This document shows positions 4,600 to 36,079 of a stretch of DNA of 64,000 bases, in pieces. Position 1 is the stretch's first letter; each line of letters starts with the position of its first letter. The DNA comes from Escherichia coli (GTDB lineage Bacteria > Pseudomonadota > Gammaproteobacteria > Enterobacterales > Enterobacteriaceae): NCBI RefSeq assembly GCF_013122565.1, contig NZ_CP053258.1; one strand, given 5' to 3'. The position numbers and the translations under genes were made by a program. The notes beneath the pieces are model-generated. The model was not told where the DNA came from, did no database searches, and was given only the letters and a program-made list of their open reading frames with translations.

Positions 4600-5145
4600 A
4601 TGATGATTTTGGTGACGGGGGGCGCACGGAGCGGGAAGAGTCGCCACGCAGAGGCGCTTATTGGGAACTCTTCACAGGTTCTGTATATCGCCACCTCGCA
4701 AATCCTTGATGATGAGATGGCTGCACGGATAGAACATCATCGGCAAGGCCGTCCGGCGCATTGGCGCACGGTGGAGCGTTGGCAACATCTTGATGAATTA
4801 ATTCATGTAGACATTAACCCGCATGAAGCTGTGTTGCTGGAATGCGTTACCACAATGGTGACTAATCTGTTGTTTGATTATGGCGGCGATAAAGACCCTG
4901 ATGAATGGGATTATCAGGCGATGGAACAGGCGATTAATGCTGAGATTCAGTCGTTGATTGCCGCCTGCCAACGTTGCCCCGCAAAGGTTGTATTAGTGAC
5001 TAACGAAGTGGGAATGGGGATTGTGCCGGAGAGTCGTCTGGCACGACATTTTCGTGATATTGCCGGGCGGGTAAATCAGCAGCTGGCCGCTGCGGCAAAT
5101 GAAGTATGGCTGGTGGTTTCGGGTATTGGAGTAAAAATCAAATGA
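4600..5145 (+). CDS. cobU: Adenosylcobinamide kinase / adenosylcobinamide-phosphate guanylyltransferase
   Basis: 181 aa, [15 protein letters not shown]-loop N-terminus; matches CobU. Confidence 0.95.
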
Positions 5146-5885
5146 GTAAATTATTTTGGGCGATGCTCTCATTTATTACGCGTCTGCCTGTACCGCGTCG
5201 CTGGTCCCAGGGACTGGATTTCGAGCATTATTCTCGCGGTATTATTACTTTTCCTTTAATTGGATTATTGCTTGGCGCGATTAGCGGGCTGGTCTTCACG
5301 GTGCTGCAGGCATGGTGTGGCGTACCACTGGCGGCACTGTTTAGCGTGCTTGTGCTGGCGCTGATGACCGGGGGATTCCACCTGGACGGCCTCGCCGATA
5401 CCTGTGATGGCGTATTTTCTGCACGTAGCCGCGATCGCATGTTGGAAATCATGCGTGATAGCCGTTTAGGCACCCACGGCGGTCTGGCATTGATTTTTGT
5501 TGTACTGGCAAAGATTCTGGTGTTAAGCGAGTTGGCTCTGCGTGGCGAACCGATCCTTGCATCGCTGGCGGCAGCATGTGCGGTCAGCCGCGGGACTGCC
5601 GCATTATTGATGTATCGTCATCGTTATGCCCGGGAAGAAGGGCTTGGCAATGTGTTCATTGGCAAAATTGATGGGCGACAAACCTGCGTCACACTCGGCT
5701 TAGCCGCTATTTTTGCTGCCGTATTATTGCCGGGTATGCATGGTGTGGCTGCTATGGTGGTGACGGTGGTGGCGATTTTCATCCTCGGTCAGCTTCTCAA
5801 ACGTACGCTGGGCGGGCAAACCGGCGATACGCTGGGAGCTGCTATAGAGCTTGGTGAACTGGTCTTCCTGCTGGCACTGCTATAA
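5142..5885 (+). CDS. cobS: Cobalamin (5'-phosphate) synthase
   Basis: Start trimmed to [16 protein letters not shown] (ATG at 5142, overlapping the cobU stop); polytopic membrane protein. Confidence 0.9.
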
Positions 5886-5896
5886 AGAGACGTGAC

Positions 5897-6976
5897 ATGC
5901 AAACACTTGCCGATTTACTGAATACGATCCCTGCTATCGATCCTGCCGCTATGTCGCGTGCACAACGGCATATTGACGGGTTACTCAAACCTGTTGGTAG
6001 CCTTGGAAGGCTGGAGGCGCTTGCCATACAACTGGCAGGAATGCCGGGGTTGAATGGCATACCGTATGTGGGCAAAAAAGCGGTACTGGTTATGTGTGCC
6101 GATCACGGCGTCTGGGAGGAAGGGGTCGCTATTTCCCCAAAAGAAGTGACAGCCATTCAGGCTGAAAATATGACCCGCGGAACAACCGGCGTGTGTGTGC
6201 TGGCAGCACAAGCGGGCGCTAACGTCCACGTAATTGATGTTGGTATTGATACTGTTGAACCTATCCCCGGGCTTATCAACATGCGTGTCGCACGAGGTAG
6301 CGGCAATATTGCTTCAGCTCCGGCAATGAGTCGCCGTCAGGCTGAAAAGTTGCTTTTGGACGTCATATGTTATACGCGGGAGCTGGCAAAAAACGGTGTC
6401 ACGCTGTTTGGTGTAGGTGAACTGGGGATGGCAAACACGACACCGGCAGCGGCAATAGTCAGCACAATCACTGGCCGGGATCCTGAAGAAGTGGTTGGGA
6501 TTGGCGCAAACCTGCCGACAGATAAACTGGCTAATAAAATTGATGTTGTGCGCCGGGCGATTACGTTGAATCAACCAAATCCGCAGGATGGCGTTGATGT
6601 TCTGGCAAAAGTGGGGGGATTTGATTTGGTCGGAATGGCTGGCGTGATGTTAGGCGCTGCTTCCTGCGGTTTACCCGTGTTGCTGGATGGATTTCTTTCT
6701 TATGCTGCTGCGCTCGCAGCCTGCCAGATGTCTCCTGCAATCAAACCGTATCTCATTCCTTCTCACCTGTCGGCAGAAAAAGGGGCGCGTATAGCGCTGT
6801 CGCATTTGGGGCTGGAGCCTTATCTCAATATGGATATGCGTTTAGGTGAGGGGAGTGGCGCAGCTCTGGCGATGCCCATCATCGAAGCTGCTTGTGCGAT
6901 ATACAACAACATGGGCGAACTTGCTGCCAGTAATATTGTTCTACCGGGGAAAACGTCTTCTGATTTGAACAGTTAA
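5897..6976 (+). CDS. cobT: Nicotinate-nucleotide--dimethylbenzimidazole phosphoribosyltransferase
   Basis: 359 aa, [19 protein letters not shown]; third gene of cobUST. Confidence 0.95.
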
Positions 6977-7037
6977 AAACGAAAAGTCTGATAAAAGCTA
7001 TACTTAACGAACAGCTTTCGCGACTTAGGAAAGGGAC

Positions 7038-7964
7038 ATGATGCGTCGTGTAAATATTCTTTGCTCATTTGCTCTGCTTTTTGCCAGCCATACTAGCCTG
7101 GCGGTAACCTATCCATTACCTCCAGAGGGTAGCCGTTTAGTGGGGCAGTCGCTTACTGTAACTGTTCCTGATCACAATACCCAGCCGCTGGAGACTTTTG
7201 CCGCACAATACGGGCAAGGGTTAAGTAACATGCTTGAAGCGAACCCGGGCGCTGATGTTTTTTTGCCGAAGTCTGGCTCGCAACTCACCATTCCGCAGCA
7301 ACTGATTTTGCCCGCCACTGTTCGTAAAGGGATTGTGGTTAACGTCGCTGAGATGCGTCTTTATTACTACCCGCCAGACAGTAATACTGTGGAAGTCTTT
7401 CCTATTGGTATCGGCCAGGCTGGGCGAGAAACCCCGCGTAACTGGGTGACTACCGTTGAACGTAAACAAGAAGCACCAACCTGGACGCCAACGCCGAACA
7501 CTCGGCGCGAATATGCGAAACGAGGGGAGAGTTTGCCCGCATTTGTTCCTGCGGGGCCCGATAATCCCATGGGGCTGTACGCGATTTATATTGGCAGGTT
7601 GTATGCCATCCATGGTACCAATGCCAATTTTGGTATTGGACTTCGGGTAAGTCAGGGCTGTATTCGTCTGCGCAATGACGATATCAAGTATCTGTTTGAT
7701 AATGTTCCTGTAGGTACTCGTGTGCAAATTATCGACCAGCCAGTAAAATACACCACTGAACCAGATGGCTCGAACTGGCTGGAAGTTCATGAGCCGCTGT
7801 CGCGCAATCGTGCAGAATATGAGTCTGACCGAAAAGTGCCATTGCCTGTAACCCCATCTTTGCGGGCGTTTATCAACGGGCAAGAAGTTGATGTGAATCG
7901 CGCAAATGCTGCGTTGCAACGACGATCGGGAATGCCTGTGAATATCAACCGTAACGGATTTTGA
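7038..7964 (+). CDS. ldtA: L,D-transpeptidase (YkuD domain)
   Basis: 308 aa with signal peptide and catalytic-region motif [20 protein letters not shown]; synteny next to cobT as for erfK/ldtA. Confidence 0.9.
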
Positions 7965-8125
7965 CATTCAAAACGTCTGGTTTTTCGGTCTGAGTAAGCA
8001 TTACGTCATGCAGAACAGGTTGTTTCGAATCATACAAATCATAATTTTCTTCTCATATGCGCATCTCTTATGAGCATAATCGTTATACTCTTCTGATTTA
8101 TACATGTTTGCTGATGACATGATCA

Positions 8126-9103
8126 ATGGAAAAGAGAATGACGAAACAGAAAAAAAACAGCCGCTGGCAGGGTTACGATCCTCGCTACATATACTCGCTC
8201 GTGGTCAGACGTTATTTTGCGGATATGAAAACCAAGATTGAGATTGCAGAGGAGCTTGGCGTTTCCCGCTTTAAAGTTGCCAGATTGATCGATGAGGCGA
8301 TCGAACAGGATTACGTGAGGTTTATCTTCCCTAAGCAGCAAGCGATGGATGAAGAAATCGCCAATAATCTACGGAAAAAATTTCATCTGGAAGATGCAAT
8401 TGTTCTTTCAGTTGCTGAATCCTGGACGACGCAAGAAGAACTCAATCACAAATTGGGTGAAGTCACCGCTGAATATCTTATGCAATCTCTTCATGAAGGT
8501 ATGAAAGTGGGGATCGCCTGGGGACGTGTATTATCAAGCACGGTCAGTAAGTTGAGCAAGTTGCCTCCTTTAGACGTTGTGCAGTTATCTGGCGTACATC
8601 CGGGGATAGAGTTTAGTCAAGGGCCAATAGATCTTATTCATAAGATCGCTGCCATTTCGCAGGGAAAAGCGCACCCAATGTACGTGCCGATGTGGGTCGA
8701 TGACGAAGAGCTTGCTGCCAGACTGGCAGGTGATCCTGCGGTATTAGATACACAGCAATATTACTCACAGTTGGATGTGGTTATCACCGGGATAGGTGAC
8801 TGGAAATCAGGTTCTTCAAGCTTGTATAAAATATTTCCGGATACCTGGTGCGAAGCTTTGTTTCAACAAGATATCGCTGCGGATGTGTGTATCTCGTTGG
8901 TCAACAGGGAAGGGAAGATTCTTCATAGTCCTATTGAACGTCTGGGATTTGGCATTTCGACGGATCAACTACAAAAAGCCAAAAAAGTGATTGGTGTCGC
9001 TGGAGGAGAAGAAAAATATGAAGGCATTCTTGCTTCGCTGAAATCCGGACTTTTGAATGTCTTAATTACTGATTTTGATACGGCCATTAAACTTCTGGAT
9101 TAA
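8126..9103 (+). CDS. SorC/DeoR-family sugar-binding transcriptional regulator
   Basis: 325 aa; N-terminal HTH (IEIAEELGVSRFKVARLI) followed by a sugar-binding-like domain; true start may be 8138 (MTKQKK). Confidence 0.75.
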   Translation: MEKRMTKQKKNSRWQGYDPRYIYSLVVRRYFADMKTKIEIAEELGVSRFKVARLIDEAIEQDYVRFIFPKQQAMDEEIANNLRKKFHLEDAIVLSVAESWTTQEELNHKLGEVTAEYLMQSLHEGMKVGIAWGRVLSSTVSKLSKLPPLDVVQLSGVHPGIEFSQGPIDLIHKIAAISQGKAHPMYVPMWVDDEELAARLAGDPAVLDTQQYYSQLDVVITGIGDWKSGSSSLYKIFPDTWCEALFQQDIAADVCISLVNREGKILHSPIERLGFGISTDQLQKAKKVIGVAGGEEKYEGILASLKSGLLNVLITDFDTAIKLLD

Positions 9104-9154
9104 TAGCCATATCAGTGAAGAAAGGGCAGTACCGCTGATTCTGCCCTTTTAATT

Positions 9155-9613
9155 TCAGGATGCTGCGAGCGTATCCTCTACATATTTAGCCACGTGCGTT
9201 GCAGGTAAATTGCGGCAAGTCTCAACAAAGGCGTTATCCTGAAACAGTGTGAATAAACGACGCAATATCGACATATGTTGATCACTGGTGGCAAATGCCA
9301 GGTTAAACATAATGCTACAATCAACTGTTAAATCAGCATCTTCCATTTGCCCGAAAGTGACATCATTGGCGAAACGAACAATACTGATACTGTTTACATT
9401 TACCAGCGTGTAATCGGCATGGGGAATGGCGATACCCTGACCGTTTGCCATCATTAGTCCTGTCGGATAGCTTTTTTCACGTTCCAGGCAGGCGTCAATG
9501 TATTCTGCAGTGATGTAGCCTTTTTCCAATAATTGCGTACCGGCAAAGGTGATCGCAGTTTGATAGTCACTGATGCTGTTATCAACATCATTCACCAGAA
9601 TTTCAAGTTTCAT
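9155..9613 (-). CDS. PTS EIIA component (fructose/mannitol/galactitol type, EIIA-2)
   Basis: 152 aa with phospho-His region GQGIAIPHADY; last gene of a minus-strand PTS operon. Confidence 0.8.
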   Translation of the reverse strand: MKLEILVNDVDNSISDYQTAITFAGTQLLEKGYITAEYIDACLEREKSYPTGLMMANGQGIAIPHADYTLVNVNSISIVRFANDVTFGQMEDADLTVDCSIMFNLAFATSDQHMSILRRLFTLFQDNAFVETCRNLPATHVAKYVEDTLAAS

Positions 9614-9623
9614 TGCACACCTG

Positions 9624-9908
9624 TTATTTCAACATCTCTTCTTTAACTGCAGCGAAAATCTCATCTTCGCCCAGACCTGTCAGTAATCCAGCGCCAACGA
9701 TGACACGAGTAGTAATGGCCGGGTTATCGAGTTTGGTCGATGAAACCACCAGGTCATAGCTGTTGAAGGTATCGCTGGTGCATGCCATTAACGAAGATTT
9801 ATCGACTTGCGCTTCAATTTTCTCTTCTTTCAGGAAGTCCTGCAGTACAGAGACCATGATGGAAGATGAGGCAATTCCGTTTCCGCAAACTACTAAGATT
9901 TTTTTCAT
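9624..9908 (-). CDS. PTS EIIB component (galactitol/ascorbate-type)
   Basis: 94 aa, MKKILVVCGNGIASSS with the phospho-Cys motif. Confidence 0.8.
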   Translation of the reverse strand: MKKILVVCGNGIASSSIMVSVLQDFLKEEKIEAQVDKSSLMACTSDTFNSYDLVVSSTKLDNPAITTRVIVGAGLLTGLGEDEIFAAVKEEMLK

Positions 9909-9931
9909 TTGATTATTCCTCTGTAAAAGAT

Positions 9932-11302
9932 TTAAAGCGCTTTTTCCAAATCCGTTTCAATCTGGCGACGTGATTTTTGTTTAATTAAGTATCCAATAGA
10001 TAACAAAAGGATACCTGCCATCAAATAGCCAATGATTCCAACATGGCTCAGGGCGGCAAACAGACCAGTAAATGGATTCGCTGACGGGTTAAGTGAAGAG
10101 TACATTACGCTGGCATCCGGGTTTGTACCAAATTTCTGGAAGACTTCGTTGGTAGCCGGTGCCATCCACGACGCAATATACAGACCACCACCGAACAAAA
10201 TGATCGAGGTCACCCAGGTGCGAATAATGTTGCCATTAAAAACAGGTACCATGCAGGCAATAAAAAACACAAACTGAGAGAGGTCACCCAGTGGCATAAC
10301 GCGGTTGCCGGGCAAGATCACGGCGAGGATCACAATGACCGGGATCAGTAATAATGCAGGGGCGATAACTGATGGATGACCCACAATCAGAGCAGTGTCC
10401 ATACCAACAGTGATTTGACGATCCGGGAACCGTTTGACCAGTTTTTTGCGTGCTACGTTGGAAAGCGGAACAAGTCCTTCCATCATGATAGAGGTCATAC
10501 GTGGTAACAGAAGCATGACCGCAGCCAGATACATCCCTAACTGTAGGCTGGCGATTATGGTGTGGTATGGGGATTTCCAGCCATAACCACAAAAGCCCAA
10601 CAAAATACCAATAATAAAACCAACCATAGTTGGATCGCCGAGAATGCCAAACCGTTTTTGAATAGTTTCGGCGGTCACATTCAGATTACGGAAGCCTGGG
10701 ATGCGATCATAAATCCAGTTGAATGGATAAGCGAAAAGTAAGTAGGTATTGGCAACCGGGTGAGAGATCGCAACACCTTTTGGCAGGTTAAAGAATTTTT
10801 CGTTATTTTTAGCACCAAGATCGGCAGCGATCAGCGCCCAGACATGGAATAGCGCGGCGGTCAATGCGCCATACAGGAAACTACCAGAATAGACGCCAAC
10901 AATTGCCCCCATTGACGCATTTTGATGAAGGTTGAAAACATCAACGTTAACACAGTCAGTCAGGCGGGCGACCAGCATTGCAATATTTACCGCAACACAG
11001 AGGGGAATAATGATAGCGCCCATGCTGGAGCCAAATCCCATAACCGCAGTCGCTGCGCCACCAACATCGATGGCACTGAGCGAGGAACCTGTTGCTTCTG
11101 CTAATCCGGTGACTGCCGGTTGCATTTTTTCCAGCATCAGTTTGATGGTCATGGTTAGCGCAATGAAACCAATGCCTACTTTGATGGCAGACGAGATACA
11201 TTCAGAAAGAGGACGGCCAAGTATCTTCATCAGTACCAGGAAGATGACCGGGATAAATATAAAATTTCCCAGATCGTTTATAAATTGCGTGATCAGTTCC
11301 AT
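9932..11302 (-). CDS. PTS EIIC permease, galactitol (GatC) family
   Basis: 456-aa polytopic membrane protein between IIB and the isomerase gene. Confidence 0.8.
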   Translation of the reverse strand: MELITQFINDLGNFIFIPVIFLVLMKILGRPLSECISSAIKVGIGFIALTMTIKLMLEKMQPAVTGLAEATGSSLSAIDVGGAATAVMGFGSSMGAIIIPLCVAVNIAMLVARLTDCVNVDVFNLHQNASMGAIVGVYSGSFLYGALTAALFHVWALIAADLGAKNNEKFFNLPKGVAISHPVANTYLLFAYPFNWIYDRIPGFRNLNVTAETIQKRFGILGDPTMVGFIIGILLGFCGYGWKSPYHTIIASLQLGMYLAAVMLLLPRMTSIMMEGLVPLSNVARKKLVKRFPDRQITVGMDTALIVGHPSVIAPALLLIPVIVILAVILPGNRVMPLGDLSQFVFFIACMVPVFNGNIIRTWVTSIILFGGGLYIASWMAPATNEVFQKFGTNPDASVMYSSLNPSANPFTGLFAALSHVGIIGYLMAGILLLSIGYLIKQKSRRQIETDLEKAL

Positions 11303-11305
11303 ACA

Positions 11306-11842
11306 TTAACCCTCAGATTTTTCATCATCTGGTCGGAAACCCATATTCCAGCGTACATCAGCGGGCTTAACCAGCAATGCATTATCGTTACGTTCAGCTT
11401 CTAGTAAGTTCTTTTTAGAATTTTCTCTGGCGGTGGTGAAGTCGAATGGGTTATCCAACCATGCATCGACAATCATTTTGCTGTATTCGAGATCGTTGAC
11501 CCGGCAACCCAGTCCAATAACTTGTGCGTTATTGCTGAGTCGCGCCCGCTTTGCGGAGTAGGGGTTAGTAACCGCAACGGCTCTTATGCCCCAGTGTTTG
11601 TTGATCTGACAAGTAAAGCCAATGCCAGTCCCACAAATGTAAATTCCCAGACGGCACTCATCGCGTTGAATAATGCCTGCCATTTCGTCGGCCAGACGCG
11701 CGAAGTTATTGACACCTTGTTCCTTACATGTGACGGGATCGTACACGATCTCCATGTTTTTCTCTTCTATGAGGTATTTTTTTATCTCCTCTTTACGTGC
11801 AAAACCTACATCATCGCTTGCGATAGCAATCTTTGTTTTCAT
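11306..11842 (-). CDS. RpiB/LacA/LacB-family sugar-phosphate isomerase with C-terminal extension
   Basis: 178 aa, MKTKIAIASDDVGF...GIYICGTGIGF, typical of ribose-5-P isomerase B / allose-6-P / galactose-6-P isomerases; first gene of the operon. Confidence 0.75.
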   Translation of the reverse strand: MKTKIAIASDDVGFARKEEIKKYLIEEKNMEIVYDPVTCKEQGVNNFARLADEMAGIIQRDECRLGIYICGTGIGFTCQINKHWGIRAVAVTNPYSAKRARLSNNAQVIGLGCRVNDLEYSKMIVDAWLDNPFDFTTARENSKKNLLEAERNDNALLVKPADVRWNMGFRPDDEKSEG

Positions 11843-12190
11843 TTCATTTTGCCTGTCGTTAAGTAACTAAAGCCAAGTATGCTGTTGGTAAATATTGGTT
11901 GTCAATTGAGATCTAAATCACAAAATTTATAACTGATTGATTTTTAATGAATTAAAAACCAATAAAAACAAATAAAAAATAAATTAAGCCAATTAAAACA
12001 AAGTAGGCTTGCACAAGCACTTTGCAATTAATAATAAAAACACATTAAATATCAATCATATATATGAATTGCCAAACATTGTCTTTATTGGGCTTATTTG
12101 TACTTTCTACAGTTAGTGTTTGTTTTTGTTTGCATCATCTGTGCTATGCTTGGCGTTTTCTAAGATGGGCAATAGATTTCAGGAGGAAGG

Positions 12191-12946
12191 ATGTATCTGG
12201 TTGATGAAAGGCGAAAGTTAATACTTGAAGACTTAATGTCGGCAGGTACGGTCTATGTCAGTGATCTTGCACGAAAGTATGAAGTAACGTATGAGACCAT
12301 CAGGAAAGATTTGACCCATCTTGAACAAAAAGGGCTGCTGATCAAAAGCCATGGTGGGGCGACTTTAAAGCAAAGGGCCATAGAGCATCCCTTTCAGGTC
12401 AGGGAAAAAGAAAATAACTCTTATAAGAAGGCGATAGCTCGTAAAGCGCTTGATTTCATTCCGCCTAATAGTTCGATGATTATCGGTACGGGCAGTACCA
12501 CTTTTGAGCTGGCTAACCTGTTATGTATGAAGTCTGGGTTTAAAATCTTCACAGATTCGCTCCCCGTTGCCAGTGTGTTGATTGAATCTGACAATCAGGT
12601 TTTTCTCTTTGGCGGCGAACTGCGTAGAAAGAGTTCCTCAGTGTTTGGGGGGTGGGCGGTATCTATGATCAACGATATACATGTTGATCTCTGTTTCATT
12701 GGAACCGACGGCTTTAGTAACATGACTGGTCCATCGACGCCTTCTTCTTCTGATGCGTTTTTGGATCGCACGATAATTTCGCACTCAGACAAAAAATATA
12801 TCCTCGGTGATTACACCAAGTTTGAGCGCAGCAGTTTGTTTAAGATCTGCGACTGGTCGGAGATCACCGCCCTTATTACCAACGATCATGCCGACAAAGA
12901 GGGGATTGCCGAAGTCGCAAAATACACGTCAGTAATAACCTGTTAG
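12191..12946 (+). CDS. DeoR/GlpR-family transcriptional regulator
   Basis: 251 aa; N-terminal HTH (VYVSDLARKYEVTYETIRKDL) plus DeoR-type sugar-phosphate-binding C-domain; divergent from the first PTS operon. Confidence 0.8.
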   Translation: MYLVDERRKLILEDLMSAGTVYVSDLARKYEVTYETIRKDLTHLEQKGLLIKSHGGATLKQRAIEHPFQVREKENNSYKKAIARKALDFIPPNSSMIIGTGSTTFELANLLCMKSGFKIFTDSLPVASVLIESDNQVFLFGGELRRKSSSVFGGWAVSMINDIHVDLCFIGTDGFSNMTGPSTPSSSDAFLDRTIISHSDKKYILGDYTKFERSSLFKICDWSEITALITNDHADKEGIAEVAKYTSVITC

Positions 12947-13123
12947 AACTCCCTACAACACGCCTTCTCCCTTCGAATCAGCTTTGCCAAATGTAATCAT
13001 TTCCAAATTATCAAGTGAGCATCCATGGTGATGCTTGCTTAGCGCCCTTTATTGAATGCATCCTCTGCATATTGCCAGTTGCACCTCATTTTTTGCGAAG
13101 AAATCATTTTTTGAATCACGGTT

Positions 13124-13263
13124 TGCTCATATGAGCATAAATGCTGTCGCCATTATGTGCTTTTTTGTGATCTGGATTTAATTTCTCAGATCTCGTCATT
13201 TATCCACAGGATCGTTGTGCTATAACTGCTCATATGAATATTGTTCAATGCTCATGTGAGCAT
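13124..13263. promoter_or_regulatory. Candidate operator: palindromic tgctcatatgagca-type sites upstream of the second PTS operon
   Basis: Perfect 14-bp palindrome tgctcatatgagca at 13124-13137; related half-site tgctcatatgaa at 13227-13238 and near-palindrome tgctcatgtgagca at 13250-13263. Confidence 0.45.
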
Positions 13264-13284
13264 TGTGGGGTGAGGGGGAAGGAT

Positions 13285-13728
13285 ATGATATCGATCAGTG
13301 TTGCCGATGGTGCGGGACTACAGAACTACGATGCCGTGCTTGAACATATTTATAACACGCATCGTGAAACGAATACGGTGAAAGAGAGCTGGCTCAATGC
13401 TATGCGTAAACGCGAAGCGGAATATCCGACAGGAATAGAACTGGAAGGTTATTCTATCGCTATACCACACTGTGATAGTGAACATGCGAATCAACCGGCT
13501 ATTTATATCATCCGTCTGCCAGACGCAATACCTGTGAACAGGGCTGATGAAGATGGAATATTGTGGGTCAGACTCGTCGTTAATCTTATTGTTACGGATC
13601 CTGCTGACCAGCTTCGATTGTTAAAGTCATTATTTAACCATCTCCAAAATGAAGAATTTTACCAAAACTTACTGACACTTCCCGTCGATGATGCAAAAGC
13701 ACTTTTTGTGTCCAAAATAATCCAATAG
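13285..13728 (+). CDS. PTS EIIA component (EIIA-2 type)
   Basis: Phospho-His region YSIAIPHCD; start placed at the ATG at 13285 with a gggggaagga RBS; the track ORF starts at 13234 inside the palindromes. Confidence 0.75.
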   Translation: MISISVADGAGLQNYDAVLEHIYNTHRETNTVKESWLNAMRKREAEYPTGIELEGYSIAIPHCDSEHANQPAIYIIRLPDAIPVNRADEDGILWVRLVVNLIVTDPADQLRLLKSLFNHLQNEEFYQNLLTLPVDDAKALFVSKIIQ

Positions 13729-13746
13729 TAAAAACTGGAGTTTATT

Positions 13747-14040
13747 ATGATTAATATTCTTGTTGCTTGTGGTAGCGGTGTCGCTACATCTACGCTTGCT
13801 GCTGATGAAGTGAAGTCAGTATGTGCTGAATATGGTATTACGGCATTTAAAATCAACAAATGCAGTATGGCTGAACTTTCTTCTGAGATGGCTCATGCAG
13901 ATATTGTACTCACAACTAATAACTATAAAGGTGATATTGGGAAACCACATATGAGTGTTGCAGGTTTTGTAACGGGTATTAATGAAGGAGCATTACGCAA
14001 GAAATTAGGAGAGTTATTAACTGAATTAGCAAATAGCTAA
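13747..14040 (+). CDS. PTS EIIB component (galactitol-type)
   Basis: 97 aa, MINILVACGSGVATST phospho-Cys motif. Confidence 0.8.
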   Translation: MINILVACGSGVATSTLAADEVKSVCAEYGITAFKINKCSMAELSSEMAHADIVLTTNNYKGDIGKPHMSVAGFVTGINEGALRKKLGELLTELANS

Positions 14041-14060
14041 ACCTGACAGGAATAATAAAA

Positions 14061-15314
14061 ATGGAAATGTTGAAAAATTTAATGGAAACCATCACCGGAA
14101 TGGGGGCAACTGCAATACTGCCGCTGGTGATATTTATTTTAGGTCTGGTGTTCAGAATGAAACCAGGTGCCGCGATCAAGTCGGGCATCACAGTCGGTAT
14201 TGGTTTTATTGGTTTAGGTTTGGTTGTTGGTTTATTAAATAGTTCATTACAGCCAGCTATTGAGTATTACTCAAAAGTAGGTAGTGGTTTTACGGTTGCA
14301 GATATTGGTTGGCCAGCAGTCGGTGCTGCTGCATGGGTAGCACCTTTTGCCGCATTAGTGATACCAGTTGGCATCGTACTTAACCTGATACTGGTGCGCC
14401 TGAAATTAACCAAAACGTTAAATGTTGATATCTGGAACTATATGCATTTTTTAGTTCCGGGCGCTCTGGCATATTTTGTGTTCGACAGTTTTATCATCGG
14501 CTTCTCTGTCGCGGTGGCTTTGAGTATTGCGGCTCTGTTTATTGGCGATTTGATTGCGCCCAGATGGCAAAAATATTATGGACTCGAGGGAACAACCTGT
14601 ACCACGATGATTCATATCGGCTGGACTCTACCGTTCGCCTGGGTAGTAAATAAAATCATTGATTACATCCCAGGGTTAAATAAGTTAGATGTTGATTTAA
14701 ACAGCGTGCAAAAACGCCTGGGTGTCTTTGGTGAACCTGCAATTATCGGTGTTATCGTTGGCGCATTACTCGGAGTTTTAACGAAACAGGCAATTACCAC
14801 AATTGTTCCCATGGCGATGGGGGTTGCTGGCGTAATGGTATTATTGCCTAAAGTGGTCGGTGTGCTGATGGAAGGTCTTAACCCGATTGGGAAAAGTGCT
14901 AAAGAAATCATGCAAAAACAGATGGGTAAAGATGCAGAATTAAACATCGGTATGGATTGTGCACTGGCGTTGGGGGATCCGGCTACGGTCACCGTGACAG
15001 TAATTACCATTCCTTTAACCATGCTATGTGCTCTGGTATTACCTGATATTAAGATCTTCCCAATCGGCGTATTGATGTCAATTATTTATATGACCACCAT
15101 GACCGTAATGGCGAGCAACGGTAACGTGATTCGTTCGATTATCTCGACCTTGTTATTCTGCGTTGTAGTGATGTATTTAGGCGGTTATGTCGCACCAGGG
15201 GCAACGCAATTTTTAGCTGGAGCCGGTGTAGGCTTGCAAGGACAAGGTACTGATTTTGTATTAACCGGCCCGTGGGAAATTTTAACCTATTGGTTGAGTA
15301 CCGTATTACATTGA
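14061..15314 (+). CDS. PTS EIIC permease, galactitol (GatC) family
   Basis: 417-aa polytopic membrane protein following IIA and IIB. Confidence 0.8.
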   Translation: MEMLKNLMETITGMGATAILPLVIFILGLVFRMKPGAAIKSGITVGIGFIGLGLVVGLLNSSLQPAIEYYSKVGSGFTVADIGWPAVGAAAWVAPFAALVIPVGIVLNLILVRLKLTKTLNVDIWNYMHFLVPGALAYFVFDSFIIGFSVAVALSIAALFIGDLIAPRWQKYYGLEGTTCTTMIHIGWTLPFAWVVNKIIDYIPGLNKLDVDLNSVQKRLGVFGEPAIIGVIVGALLGVLTKQAITTIVPMAMGVAGVMVLLPKVVGVLMEGLNPIGKSAKEIMQKQMGKDAELNIGMDCALALGDPATVTVTVITIPLTMLCALVLPDIKIFPIGVLMSIIYMTTMTVMASNGNVIRSIISTLLFCVVVMYLGGYVAPGATQFLAGAGVGLQGQGTDFVLTGPWEILTYWLSTVLH

Positions 15315-15336
15315 TTTAATAATCTGGAGTTTTAAC

Positions 15337-15981
15337 ATGGCAAAAATATTACCTTCTATATTTGGCGCGGATATTTTACGCCTGAAAGATGAAATTCATT
15401 TTCTGGAAGAGGAACAAACCGAAATATTGCACGTTGATTTAATGGATGGCACTTATGTCAGTAATATTGCCTTTGGCCCAAATCAAATAGCAGCAATGAA
15501 AAAAGCCAGTTCGATGATCTTTGATGTGCACATGATGCTGGCAAATCCTGAGCGACATATTGATGATGTAATCAATACCGGGGCGGAGATGATTTCTGTA
15601 CATTATGAATCGACGCCACATGTACATTATATTATTCAAAAAATCAAAAAAGCGGGTCGCAAAGCAGGTGTTGTGCTTAATCCTGGGACACCTGAATCTG
15701 TCATCGAGTATTTATTAGATGATATTGATTATATATTGTTAATGACAATTAACCCAGGGCAACCAGGCCAGACATTTATTCATAAAAGTCTGGAGAAAAT
15801 CCGTAATACCAAAAAAATGATATCTGGCAGAGATATTCAAATTGAAGTGGATGGTGGCGTTAATCTTGATAATGTAAAACAAGTTAAAGAAGCAGGGGCT
15901 GACCTTATTGTTGTTGGTGGTGCCTTATTTAACAAACAGCCTCGTGAAAGTTATCAGGCATTGAAAATCGCTATTCAGTGA
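15337..15981 (+). CDS. Ribulose-phosphate 3-epimerase family protein (Rpe/AlsE-like ketose-phosphate 3-epimerase)
   Basis: 214 aa with the HVDLMDG signature and TIM-barrel epimerase layout. Confidence 0.8.
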   Translation: MAKILPSIFGADILRLKDEIHFLEEEQTEILHVDLMDGTYVSNIAFGPNQIAAMKKASSMIFDVHMMLANPERHIDDVINTGAEMISVHYESTPHVHYIIQKIKKAGRKAGVVLNPGTPESVIEYLLDDIDYILLMTINPGQPGQTFIHKSLEKIRNTKKMISGRDIQIEVDGGVNLDNVKQVKEAGADLIVVGGALFNKQPRESYQALKIAIQ

Positions 15982-16078
15982 TCACAATCTAAAAATTTCA
16001 CATCCAGTTAAGTGAGGTTTTCGATTTCATATCGGGAGGAAAACCTCAGCTAAAAAATGTCTTTAATGGAGAAAAGTA

Positions 16079-16831
16079 ATGAGTAATTTTGCAGGTAAAG
16101 TGGTTTTAGTTACCGGAGGTGCTCACGGTATTGGCAAAGGGATAGCTAAACAATTTGCTGATCGTGGTGCACATACTGTTATTGTTGACTATAACGAAGA
16201 GAACGGCAAGGCCACTGCAGCAGAGTTAACTTTTGGCGATGTTAAATCGCTGTTTGTTAAAACAGATGTCTCTGATCCACAGGCATTAGTGGATGTACGG
16301 GAAAAAGTATTTGCTACCTTTGGTCGTATTGATGTGTTGATATTAAATGCCGGTGTGGCATTTGCCAATAAAGTTAACAATATTTCTTTTGAGGAATGGA
16401 ATAAGACTATCGCAATTAATTTATCGGGATTATTTAATACCGTTAAGGCGTTTTATGATGATTTCCTGACAAATAAGGGATCTATTGTTTATATCTCATC
16501 GGGATCAGCACTTTCGGGGACTGGAGGCGGTGTGAGTTATCCAGCCAGTAAAGCGGGAGGCGAAGGGTTGATTCGCGGTCTGGCGAAGGAGTTAGGACCA
16601 AAAGGCGTCAATGTTAATGCGATTGCTCCCCGCTTAATAGACACCGGAGAGATGATGCGGGTCAACTATCCGACACAAGCCGATTTAGACGCTGTCCTGG
16701 AAAAAATACCCGTCCGTCGTCTGGGAACTATCGATGATGTGGCTAACCTGGCAATATTTTTGGCAGATAAAGATAACTCTTATATTCAGGGACAAACCAT
16801 TTTAATGGATGGTGGCCGGACTATTGCTTAA
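16079..16831 (+). CDS. Short-chain dehydrogenase/reductase (SDR) family oxidoreductase
   Basis: 250 aa with Rossmann motif TGGAHGIGKG and a YxxxK active-site region (YPASK). Confidence 0.8.
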   Translation: MSNFAGKVVLVTGGAHGIGKGIAKQFADRGAHTVIVDYNEENGKATAAELTFGDVKSLFVKTDVSDPQALVDVREKVFATFGRIDVLILNAGVAFANKVNNISFEEWNKTIAINLSGLFNTVKAFYDDFLTNKGSIVYISSGSALSGTGGGVSYPASKAGGEGLIRGLAKELGPKGVNVNAIAPRLIDTGEMMRVNYPTQADLDAVLEKIPVRRLGTIDDVANLAIFLADKDNSYIQGQTILMDGGRTIA

Positions 16832-16846
16832 AAAGGGAGAGAAAAA

Positions 16847-17407
16847 ATGAGTGTTCAGGAAAATACTATTAATATTCTGCATGAATTAGAGAGTAATGCG
16901 CTGAAGATTGACGATGCTCAGGCTTCACAGTTCATTTCGCAAATCAGAAATGCCCGGCATATTTTTTTGCAGGGAGCTGGTCGCAGTGGCATTGCTATTC
17001 GCGCTTTTGCTAATCGCTTGCTGCATTTAGGTTTTTCAGTAAGCGTTGTGGGAGAAATATCATCACCGCATACTCAACCTGGAGATCTATTAATTATTGG
17101 GTCAGGCAGTGGTGAAACTACCAGTTTGAAAAGTCTGGCACAAAAAGCAGTTGATAGCGGAGTAAACGTCGCTCTGGTAACTATGAAAGCTGATTCAACG
17201 ATCGGTAAATTAGCTCAATCTGTGTTGGTACTACCAGGAAGTGTGAAAGACGATAACAATCGTGTTGCAGGCGCTTTCGCGCAACCAATGGGCTCAGCTT
17301 TTGAGCAACTCTGCTTTATTACTTATGATGCAATTGTTCTGGAGTTGATGTCTGAACTGGGTGAAAGCAGTGCCACAATGTTTACCCGACACGCTGATCT
17401 GGAATGA
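16847..17407 (+). CDS. SIS-domain sugar-phosphate isomerase (6-phospho-3-hexuloisomerase-like)
   Basis: 186 aa; single SIS domain (FLQGAGRSGIA); size and layout resemble HxlB-type PHI. Confidence 0.7.
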   Translation: MSVQENTINILHELESNALKIDDAQASQFISQIRNARHIFLQGAGRSGIAIRAFANRLLHLGFSVSVVGEISSPHTQPGDLLIIGSGSGETTSLKSLAQKAVDSGVNVALVTMKADSTIGKLAQSVLVLPGSVKDDNNRVAGAFAQPMGSAFEQLCFITYDAIVLELMSELGESSATMFTRHADLE

Positions 17408-17431
17408 CTAAAAAGTTGGTAATTAGAAAGC

Positions 17432-17461
17432 AAAAAGCCTGCTAGAAAGCAGGCTTTTTTG
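17432..17461. terminator. Bidirectional rho-independent terminator between the island and asnV
   Basis: Hairpin agcctgc-tagaaa-gcaggct flanked by an A-run upstream and a T-run downstream. Confidence 0.6.
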
Positions 17462-17465
17462 AATT

Positions 17466-17541
17466 TGGCTCCTCTGACTGGACTCGAACCAGTGACATAC
17501 GGATTAACAGTCCGCCGTTCTACCGACTGAACTACAGAGGA
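17466..17541 (-). tRNA. asnV: tRNA-Asn (GUU)
   Basis: 76-nt reverse complement of the E. coli tRNA-Asn sequence; position between ldtA side and nac. Confidence 0.95.
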
Positions 17542-17795
17542 ATCGTGTGAACGGGGCGCATATTAATGGCAGTGCATGGTGATGTCAAAGGGTGAAATGC
17601 ATTTTTTTGTTTGTTTGCTGTCAATTTCAACAAAGTGATGAGATTTCAATCTTATTGGTTATGAACCATCGTGGTGCATACTCTCCTTTTATGGGGCAGG
17701 GGAACGCGATTGCTGATAAAAAGAACCAATGACGAATCTATCATAATCTCTTATTTGACAGTTGGTTAGCTTGTACATCAACGCCAAAATAAAAC

Positions 17796-19873: not shown

Positions 19874-19949
19874 TGGCTCCTCTGACTGGACTCGAACCAG
19901 TGACATACGGATTAACAGTCCGCCGTTCTACCGACTGAACTACAGAGGA
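19874..19949 (-). tRNA. asnU: tRNA-Asn (GUU)
   Basis: Identical 76-nt tRNA-Asn sequence (reverse complement). Confidence 0.95.
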
Positions 19950-21697: not shown

Positions 21698-21773
21698 TCC
21701 TCTGTAGTTCAGTCGGTAGAACGGCGGACTGTTAATCCGTATGTCACTGGTTCGAGTCCAGTCAGAGGAGCCA
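21698..21773 (+). tRNA. asnW: tRNA-Asn (GUU)
   Basis: TCCTCTGTAGTTCAGTCGGTAGAACGGCGGACTGTTAATCCG...GAGCCA read directly on the plus strand. Confidence 0.95.
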
Positions 21774-27783: not shown

Positions 27784-35766
<7,983 letters not shown>

Positions 35767-36079
35767 GCTTACCTTCCCTGAACGAGCTAACATAAATGCG
35801 CCCTTTCTAGCACAGCGAAAAAATGTAAATCCTGATAGCAATATGATTGAAAATTAATAACTTTTCGTTAGGCAGTTTTGGGTGTGAGTTGCAAGAGGGG
35901 AGACTACTGAATTACTCAAGTTTTATAATCGAGGGGAAAATGGTGATGGCGTCCATAGCAAAACGCCCTCAACCATTAAGGTCGAAGGCGCTTAAGATGT
36001 CAAAAACCCGCTATCCGTTAAAAAGCAATGCTCAACTAAGGTCAGTGACATTGCGCTAAAAAAGCGAATTTTTAGAATT

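Follow-up and report, generated by a model that had tools for sequence, protein, structure and literature searches.

Operons of the phosphotransferase system (PTS) of the polyol type are already known. In Escherichia coli, the gatYZABCD and srlAEBD-gutM-srlR-gutQ operons combine such a PTS with a polyol-phosphate dehydrogenase, and the srl operon pairs a short-chain dehydrogenase/reductase (SDR), SrlD, with the SIS-domain isomerase GutQ. The D-allose/D-allulose system of the same species (alsBACEK, rpiB) uses an ABC transporter and a kinase, and leads a rare hexose phosphate to fructose-6-phosphate (F6P) by an Rpe-family epimerase and an RpiB-type isomerase. In methylotrophs and in Bacillus subtilis (yckG/yckF), the ribulose-monophosphate (RuMP) pair HxlA/HxlB makes and isomerises 3-hexulose-6-phosphate. 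We analysed a stretch of 64,000 nucleotides of E. coli (assembly GCF_013122565.1, contig NZ_CP053258.1), referred to below as the window, in which a Gat-family PTS operon, here called operon B, closes with genes for an Rpe-like epimerase, an SDR and a SIS protein of the HxlB type. This enzyme set is undescribed: a full-text literature search found no functional study of the cluster, and in the onion-virulence region OVR-A of Pantoea ananatis the cluster is listed by annotation only (PMC5817063). Our comparisons give an even chance that the three enzymes and the Gat-family EIIABC form a self-contained mobile catabolic module, which would convert a sugar alcohol or rare sugar to F6P.

Each of these systems is matched in part. 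As in the RuMP pair, there is a SIS protein that agrees with HxlB in model, identity and motifs. Unlike that pair, it has no HxlA partner in the window, where a tblastn search with two HxlA proteins picked up nothing beyond a weak barrel resemblance of the Rpe-like gene, nor in most of the related clusters; the joint presence of HxlA and HxlB that characterises a formaldehyde-fixation module is thus lacking in the window, and any 3-hexulose-6-phosphate must therefore come from the dehydrogenase and the epimerase instead of formaldehyde and ribulose-5-phosphate (Ru5P). The genes are moreover set in a PTS sugar operon with sugar-responsive regulators, whereas the RuMP pair is induced by formaldehyde. 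With the D-allose system the locus has in common an Rpe-family epimerase and, in a neighbouring operon, an RpiB-type isomerase; it differs by PTS uptake, by an epimerase that stays below the AlsE cutoff and has lost the lid Phe, and by the additional SDR and HxlB. A Klebsiella psicose locus was also considered as an equivalent and rejected, as it is a different system, with a permease, a kinase and AlsE (PMC6020474). Compared with the gat and srl operons, the PTS is of the Gat family and is again accompanied by a dehydrogenase and, as in srl, by a SIS-domain isomerase, but the EII components stay below the galactitol-specific cutoffs, the SDR is remote from SrlD, the SIS protein is HxlB-type and not KpsF/GutQ, and neither a tagatose-bisphosphate aldolase nor an MDR-type GatD is present.

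A Listeria-type locus (L046, 1534-10289), which we take to be lmo0498-lmo0508, the "second pentitol operon" of Kentache et al. 2016, shares Gat EIIA, EIIB and EIIC, a PRD-type activator, a dehydrogenase, a SIS isomerase and an Rpe paralogue that is 59% identical to the one studied here. Its dehydrogenase is, in contrast, a GatD-like MDR protein, its SIS protein is KpsF/GutQ-like and without CBS domains, and canonical RpiB, Rpe and Tal genes are attached, together with an unannotated ORF (open reading frame) of 132 aa. Two Rpe-family genes stand side by side in it, only one of them of the lid-variant kind described below (with Leu as lid residue), and therefore their roles should differ. The operon was rejected as the same module on account of its KpsF/GutQ-like SIS and is treated here as an analogue only.

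The enzymes and transporter of operon B

The three enzyme genes follow the co-directional EIIA, EIIB and EIIC genes in the order epimerase, SDR, SIS, with intergenic gaps of 16-98 bp, and their ORFs lie on the plus strand, exactly at the positions given in the initial annotation, and close a Gat-type PTS operon (Table 1). Since the proteins are 99-100% identical to annotated genes in other E. coli and 60-93% identical across phyla, these are real genes and not chance ORFs. The family names proposed for the three also hold, in view of the models TIGR01163 and TIGR03127, both passed, and of the SDR motifs. The PTS belongs to the Gat family, with EIIA, EIIB and EIIC as separate ORFs and an EIIC of the PF03611/TIGR00827 type (PF03611 was detected on EIIC orthologues). 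None of the three reaches its galactitol-specific cutoff: EIIA scores 136.1 bits on the GatA model (cutoff 139), EIIB 50.7 bits on the GatB model (cutoff 95), and EIIC 322.5 bits on TIGR00827, the EIIC-GAT model (cutoff 542.2, E=3.7e-96).

The SIS protein is a single SIS domain of about 180 aa that reaches 209.6 bits on the HxlB model TIGR03127 (cutoff 160), and its closest solved structure is B. subtilis YckF/HxlB (1m3s, E=5e-44, over the full length), with which it shares 47% identity and all family-invariant motifs, GxGRSG, QPxGxxFEQ and the C-terminal HA..E among them. These features place it in the 6-phospho-3-hexuloisomerase family, whereas the KdsD/GutQ models gave no significant match to it; the earlier naming as HxlB type is thereby upheld, and the competing idea of a regulatory or capsule-type SIS protein falls away. 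The SIS genes of the related clusters split into two deep lineages with about 35% identity between them, and even those at 33-38% identity to the E. coli protein all score 191-213 bits on TIGR03127. Because B. subtilis HxlB falls inside this diversity (45-47% to lineage 1, 36-38% to lineage 2) with every invariant motif in common, the simplest reading would be that the cluster SIS proteins keep hexuloisomerase chemistry.

The epimerase passes the Rpe equivalog model TIGR01163 with 235.3 bits (cutoff 212.6) and fails the AlsE model with 178.4 bits (cutoff 271); the identity to E. coli AlsE is 33%, and the nearest solved structure is Rpe of S. pyogenes (2fli, E=3e-56). Aligned with Rpe and AlsE of E. 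coli, it keeps the metal-binding and catalytic set of H32, D34, H65 and D172, and the three active-site methionines M36, M67 and M136 are invariant, so that residue set and model score together place it in the Rpe family (PF00834/TIGR01163). The signature of the housekeeping Ru5P 3-epimerase, with an aromatic residue in the lid and, behind strand beta-8, Gly-Ser/Thr, is absent: the capping loop reads NPGQPGQ in place of NPGFGGQ, by which the lid Phe is gone, and the Ser/Thr following beta-8 is replaced by Gly (motif VGGALF). According to PMC8756792, the GFGG loop belongs to the Rpe active site and caps it. Every cluster-linked copy has an NPG[Q/T/R/E]xGQ loop; the Rpe of E. coli, AlsE and an unrelated Enterococcus Rpe paralogue have NPGF(G/A)GQ.

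Among the 150 nearest representatives of 50%-identity clusters, the lid residue is Phe in 117 and Tyr or Trp in 12. A simple neighbour-joining tree gathers all 13 cluster-linked copies and the Listeria-type copy in one clade of 19 leaves, where no aromatic lid residue occurs (Glu in six, Arg and Gln in four each, Leu in three, Thr in two), while 120 of the 131 sequences outside this clade carry one. The idea that Rpe and HxlB were independently recruited from housekeeping genes, with canonical functions, was dropped for Rpe in view of this single clade; the SIS genes, on the other hand, do show the two deep lineages mentioned above. From alignment and tree the epimerase thus appears to be neither a housekeeping Rpe nor AlsE-like, but a member of a dedicated clade without the lid Phe. 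AlsE, whose substrate exceeds Ru5P by one carbon at the phosphate end, keeps the Phe, and hence the loss of the lid Phe would rather fit a substrate lengthened at the head end, as in 3-hexulose-6-phosphate.

For the SDR, the classical motifs are found, namely TGGAHGIG, the Asp in VDYN and the Ser-Tyr-Lys triad in ISS...YPASK, and PF00106 and PF13561 were detected on its orthologues; the Asp in VDYN marks a preference for NAD, consistent with catabolic oxidation. It passes no NCBIfam cutoff, the best models being glucose 1-dehydrogenase and FabG, both sub-threshold, and the best PDB matches are unassigned or FabG-like SDRs. The initial annotation called it a polyol-phosphate-type dehydrogenase, which homology does not support: with 26% identity to E. 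coli SrlD, kinship with that enzyme was rejected. At the same time the SDR is by far the best conserved component of the operon, 77-79% identical between the two lineages of the module, against 45-51% for EIIC, 45-46% for the Rpe-like protein and 36-37% for the SIS protein. Across 15 sequences from several phyla 101 of 250 positions are invariant, and the C-terminal 150 residues, with the substrate loops, are almost so. Relatives of 80-90% identity occur in Providencia, Pantoea, Erwinia, Enterococcus, Paenibacillus and others, and in Enterococcus sp. CU9D (L011) the SDR shares 92% identity with its E. coli counterpart, against 69-75% for its neighbours (EIIC 69%). This excess of conservation suggests either exchange of alleles across phyla or an unusually strong constraint, and the SDR is presumed to be the dehydrogenase that determines the specificity of the module.

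Conserved linkage and mobility of the module

To see how far the genes stay together, a scan was made with peptides from the query on one genome per species, a design biased towards SDRs close to the query one, and the ORFs of the retrieved loci come from naive calling. The scan yielded 31 species-level loci with an SDR 61-93% identical, in Proteobacteria, Firmicutes and Actinobacteria; their hosts belong to Enterobacterales, Enterococcus, Streptococcus cuniculi, Paenibacillus, Lachnospiraceae, Peptoniphilaceae, Selenomonadales, Austwickia and Erysipelotrichaceae. In 30 of them the Rpe-like gene adjoins the SDR gene, the exception (L025) being cut by a contig end; an HxlB-type SIS gene is likewise present in 30, and EIIC-Gat in 29. 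Lactiplantibacillus plantarum also carries the module (SDR 66%, Rpe-like 65%, SIS 62%). The gene order varies, for example Rpe-SDR-IIC-IIA-SIS-IIB in Lachnospiraceae and Rpe-SIS-SDR in L. plantarum, the regulators are of SorC, DeoR or PRD/Mga type depending on the locus, and the parts may be mosaic, as in Hespellia (L023), where the Rpe-like protein is 72% and the SIS protein 35% identical. Because of these differences in order, regulator and parts, the linkage does not amount to one inherited block; because synteny persists across phyla in spite of them, the three enzymes and the Gat PTS appear to work as one unit.

The module is widely transferred and horizontally mobile. It adjoins a tRNA gene here, and an integrase fragment or insertion sequence (IS) elements elsewhere. 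It was found on 36 plasmids of Klebsiella, Pantoea, Enterobacter and Erwinia, 10 of them predicted to be conjugative (examples are NZ_CP054998.1, NC_016515.1 and NZ_CP020945.2). Many of the plasmid carriers are isolates from onion rot, assigned to Pantoea ananatis, Pantoea agglomerans, Erwinia persicina and Enterobacter ludwigii, and IncF plasmids of Klebsiella pneumoniae are further carriers; on one of the latter the whole island, with operon B and its neighbour operon A, is flanked by ISKpn26. Pantoea, Erwinia, Brenneria and Paenibacillus have operon B but no operon A.

HxlA is not in 29 of the 31 species-level loci. The 31 include L036, in which HxlA (237 bits) occurs close to an Rpe-like gene and an SDR orthologue of 61% identity. 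A separately found metagenomic variant (L049, 4821-12746) encodes Gat EIIB, EIIC and EIIA, a PRD regulator, an Rpe-like protein with a lid Glu, HxlB (191 bits), an SDR 65% identical to the query, HxlA (259 bits, cutoff 200) and a second SDR. The HxlB and EIIA of L049 are absent from the gene calls and were recovered by an ORF scan of the uncalled gaps; the reading of this locus as having HxlA in place of HxlB was rejected once the scan had revealed HxlB as well. Both enzymes that act on D-arabino-3-hexulose-6-phosphate are thus associated with this SDR-epimerase pair in L049 and L036. Other neighbours concern tagatose and galactitol: an Anaerostipes cluster has GatD-like, PfkB-kinase, GatY-type aldolase and ketose-3-epimerase-like genes, and lacC and lacD lie upstream in one Enterococcus. 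Together with the Gat-type EII found everywhere, these genes are hints to the tagatose/galactitol family of substrates.

A proposed route to fructose-6-phosphate and its alternatives

With the presence of the genes, their family membership and their conserved linkage established, we infer the single catalytic steps, their order and the substrate as follows. The PTS would import a linear polyol, or a related ketohexose, and phosphorylate a terminal hydroxyl; the NAD-dependent SDR would oxidise the polyol phosphate to a ketohexose-6-phosphate; the lid-variant Rpe paralogue would invert the carbon beside the carbonyl on the phosphate side; and the HxlB-type isomerase would shift the carbonyl from C3 to C2, yielding F6P. 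Two chemistries would satisfy this scheme, and in every version D-arabino-3-hexulose-6-phosphate is most likely the common intermediate. In chemistry (i), the SDR would be a hexitol-6-phosphate 3-dehydrogenase on D-talitol-6-phosphate or D-iditol-6-phosphate, with a "xylulose-like" C4, and the Rpe paralogue a 3-hexulose-6-phosphate 4-epimerase that delivers D-arabino-3-hexulose-6-phosphate to HxlB. Such a C4 epimerisation is formally that of xylulose-5-phosphate (Xu5P) to Ru5P with a longer head, the tail of the substrate being identical to that of the two pentuloses. In chemistry (ii), the SDR would be a 2-dehydrogenase, for example from galactitol-phosphate to tagatose-6-phosphate; HxlB would then run backwards to the 3-ulose, C4 would be epimerised, and HxlB would run forwards, with a net 4-epimerisation of tagatose-6-phosphate to F6P. 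That HxlB serves outside one-carbon metabolism precisely with an SDR 3-dehydrogenase and an Rpe-paralogue 4-epimerase, a pentose-phosphate logic one carbon up, is a tentative proposal, which we put forward with more doubt than confidence.

The initial annotation had drawn a comparable route to F6P, by SDR oxidation, 3-epimerisation and a SIS-type isomerisation of the RuMP kind, with allose, psicose, tagatose, allitol and altritol among the candidate substrates. Its last part is favoured: an end point at F6P by RuMP-type isomerisation would be the most economical reading, and it is reinforced by the variant cluster with HxlA and HxlB. Its middle part fares less well, as the lid-variant clade would fit C4 epimerisation of 3-hexulose-6-phosphate better than 3-epimerisation of a 2-ketohexose-6-phosphate.

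Several points weigh against the scheme. The epimerase is still above the curated Rpe equivalog cutoff, so it may perform ordinary Ru5P epimerisation, and the contact of the lid Phe with the substrate C1, on which the argument leans, is in part our assumption from the human RPE structure. We know of no hexitol-phosphate 3-dehydrogenase activity, and the hexitols that would fit chemistry (i), D-talitol/altritol and D-iditol, are rare in nature; chemistry (ii) needs HxlB to accept tagatose-6-phosphate. Moreover, the KpsF/GutQ-like SIS partner in the Listeria-type locus means that the epimerase clade is not exclusive to hexuloisomerases, in Anaerostipes the GatD-like, PfkB-kinase and GatY-aldolase genes would make a bypass from tagatose-6-phosphate to F6P partly redundant, and the literature found on members of the module holds annotations alone.

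A first rival reading takes the substrate to be a pentitol. Operon B could import D-arabitol, xylitol or ribitol, the SDR making Ru5P or Xu5P and the Rpe-like protein acting as an ordinary epimerase, while the SIS protein would work on pentoses, e.g. from arabinose-5-phosphate to Ru5P, as an analogue of the phosphohexuloisomerase one carbon shorter. Besides the Rpe score itself, this agrees with the RpiB-like enzyme supplied by operon A, with the RpiB, Rpe, transaldolase and KpsF/GutQ-like SIS of the Listeria-type locus, which is the closest out-group, and with the carriage of D-arabitol by Gat-family PTSs in Listeria and B. methanolicus (PMC6685057). We hold it unlikely all the same, since the SIS protein is HxlB-type in every cluster, without a significant KdsD/GutQ match, and HxlA co-occurs in variant loci; the lid Phe, a feature of nearly all Ru5P epimerases, is missing from the epimerase clade, and the Listeria-type locus itself has a second Rpe beside its member of this clade. 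A 2-dehydrogenase route on a pentitol-5-phosphate would furthermore need no isomerase, yet the SIS gene is kept in all but one of the 31 loci. That same retention bears on a second possibility, namely that the SDR is a hexitol-6-phosphate 2-dehydrogenase forming psicose-6-phosphate (from allitol or altritol) or another 2-ketohexose-6-phosphate, which an AlsE-type C3 epimerisation would convert to F6P. Dehydrogenase plus 3-epimerase chemistry is established for D-allose/allulose (PMC12216980); the AlsE match is strong, though sub-threshold, and the adjacent operon A holds a relative of RpiB, a protein annotated in E. coli K-12 as allose-6-phosphate isomerase. In this case the SIS protein would be auxiliary, or meant for a second substrate or for operon A (allose/psicose), and so a strictly conserved HxlB would be left without a role; the epimerase is closer to Rpe than to AlsE by its bit scores, AlsE retains the lid Phe that this clade has lost, and operon B exists in four genera without operon A, all of which makes such a route quite unlikely. 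As for formaldehyde assimilation or detoxification by a partial RuMP set, with PTS and SDR as fortuitous neighbours, HxlB and Rpe are indeed RuMP-cycle enzymes and L049 has both HxlA and HxlB, but the scarcity of HxlA described above and the presence of linked Gat EII genes and sugar-responsive regulators (SorC, DeoR, PRD/Mga) in every case make it scarcely credible.

Should the scheme from polyol phosphate to F6P be true, the RuMP enzyme HxlB would gain a physiological role in non-methylotrophs, two new activities, hexitol-phosphate 3-dehydrogenase and 3-hexulose-phosphate 4-epimerase, would be added, and a carbohydrate niche trait would be seen to move among gut, insect and plant bacteria. 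The biology concerned is ordinary carbohydrate catabolism, but the module is mobile, occurs in many hosts and receives misleading names from automatic annotation: the uncharacterised enzyme set is carried by about 4% of complete E. coli genomes, by conjugative Klebsiella plasmids, by plasmids of onion-pathogenic Pantoea and Erwinia, and by Enterococcus, L. plantarum and gut Lachnospiraceae, and the automatic names rpe, FabG/SDR and hxlB would mislead metabolic models into adding a false second Rpe and an isolated step of the RuMP pathway.

Regulation, operon A and the setting of the island

Upstream of operon B, a 14-bp palindrome, TGCTCAYRTGAGCA, occurs in two perfect copies (13124-13137 and 13249-13262), with half-sites at 13012-13022 and 13227-13237. 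These two are its only matches in the window, against 0.06 expected, and the second copy lies 23 bp upstream of the EIIA start. Nine Enterobacterales loci have the palindrome at the corresponding position, with or without a DeoR gene, and some of the nine have a SorC-type gene as sole regulator. In the window, the SorC-type gene stands on the far side of operon A, and its counterpart in E. coli PapRG-06-5 is annotated as a sugar-binding transcriptional regulator; orthologues (74-81%) are found directly upstream of operon B, without a DeoR gene, in Pantoea, Erwinia, Brenneria, Izhakiella and Pseudocitrobacter. The DeoR gene accompanies instead the RpiB-like operon, beside which it is divergently placed in Streptococcus gallolyticus, L. 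plantarum and Gilliamella. Because the palindrome is kept in loci with SorC alone and the DeoR gene goes with the RpiB-like operon elsewhere, the SorC-type protein, and not the adjacent DeoR, probably controls operon B through these candidate operators, the DeoR protein probably regulates operon A, and we conclude that the island would be a composite, in which a unit of operon A and DeoR came by insertion to separate operon B from the sorC-like gene.

The RpiB-like protein of operon A keeps the Cys of the ICGTG motif, has Ser in place of His99 of E. coli RpiB and a conserved C-terminal extension of about 30 aa, and is 65-90% identical across Firmicutes and Proteobacteria. In Klebsiella oxytoca, on the K. 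pneumoniae IncF plasmid, and in Enterococcus, L. plantarum and S. gallolyticus, an hxlB gene closes operon A, which in S. gallolyticus stands alone with this HxlB of its own. The E. coli operon A ends without it, 51 bp from the sorC-like gene (9103-9155), a gap that was compared with L035 (415-945) and L054 (1428-1949). It has thus lost its terminal HxlB gene, and may therefore depend on the HxlB of operon B. By analogy with operon B, an RpiB-like enzyme plus HxlB would convert psicose-6-phosphate to F6P through 3-hexulose-6-phosphate, without AlsE.

Table 1. Features of the accessory island and its right edge, with positions in the window
Feature	Position	Strand	Basis or remark
SorC-type sugar-binding transcriptional regulator	8126-9103	+	Annotation of PapRG-06-5 counterpart, orthologues
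Operon A EIIA	9155-9613	-	
Operon A EIIB	9624-9908	-	
Operon A EIIC-Gat	9932-11302	-	
Operon A RpiB/LacAB-like isomerase	11306-11842	-	Scores under or close to the cutoffs of RpiB subfamily models
DeoR/GlpR-family regulator, divergent from operon A	12191-12946	+	AgaR/GlpR-like, below model cutoffs
Operon B Gat-family PTS EIIA	13285-13728	+	Start per RefSeq orthologue; longest ORF from 13234
Operon B Gat-family PTS EIIB	13747-14040	+	
Operon B EIIC-Gat	14061-15314	+	
Rpe-family epimerase, lid-variant clade, 214 aa	15337-15981	+	Models, alignment, tree
Classical NAD-type SDR, 250 aa	16079-16831	+	Motifs, orthologue conservation
HxlB-type SIS protein, 186 aa	16847-17407	+	TIGR03127, comparison with B. 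subtilis HxlB
GC-rich palindromic hairpin, A/T runs on both sides	17432-17459	.	Bidirectional terminator-like, shared with tRNA-Asn
tRNA-Asn (GTT), right edge of the island	17466-17541	-	

The accessory island measures 9.4 kb and is bounded by ldtA (7038-7964) and tRNA-Asn, in a chromosomal context of Escherichia type with cobUST-ldtA on the left and tRNA-Asn, nac, cbl and yeeO on the right; the hairpin after the SIS gene carries T-runs on both strands. Of the 5,426 complete genomes of E. coli compared, 225 cover at least 80% of operon B (query 12000-17600) and 237 do so for the operon A segment, about 4% in each case. The maximum identity is 98.6% for the cobU-ldtA flank (window 4600-8000), and 98.3% and 99.0% for the two island segments searched (within 8100-17600), which points to a somewhat divergent Escherichia lineage or to one absent from this set.

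Within 4.3 kb there are three tRNA-Asn (GTT) genes (the one bounding the island, 19874-19949 and 21698-21773), which flank nac-cbl and yeeO and mark the asn tRNA region where islands insert in E. coli. Further along, an ORF of 2,685 aa on the minus strand (27784-35841), in a region of about 50% GC, may encode a YeeJ-like adhesin, judging from its position near the asn tRNAs.

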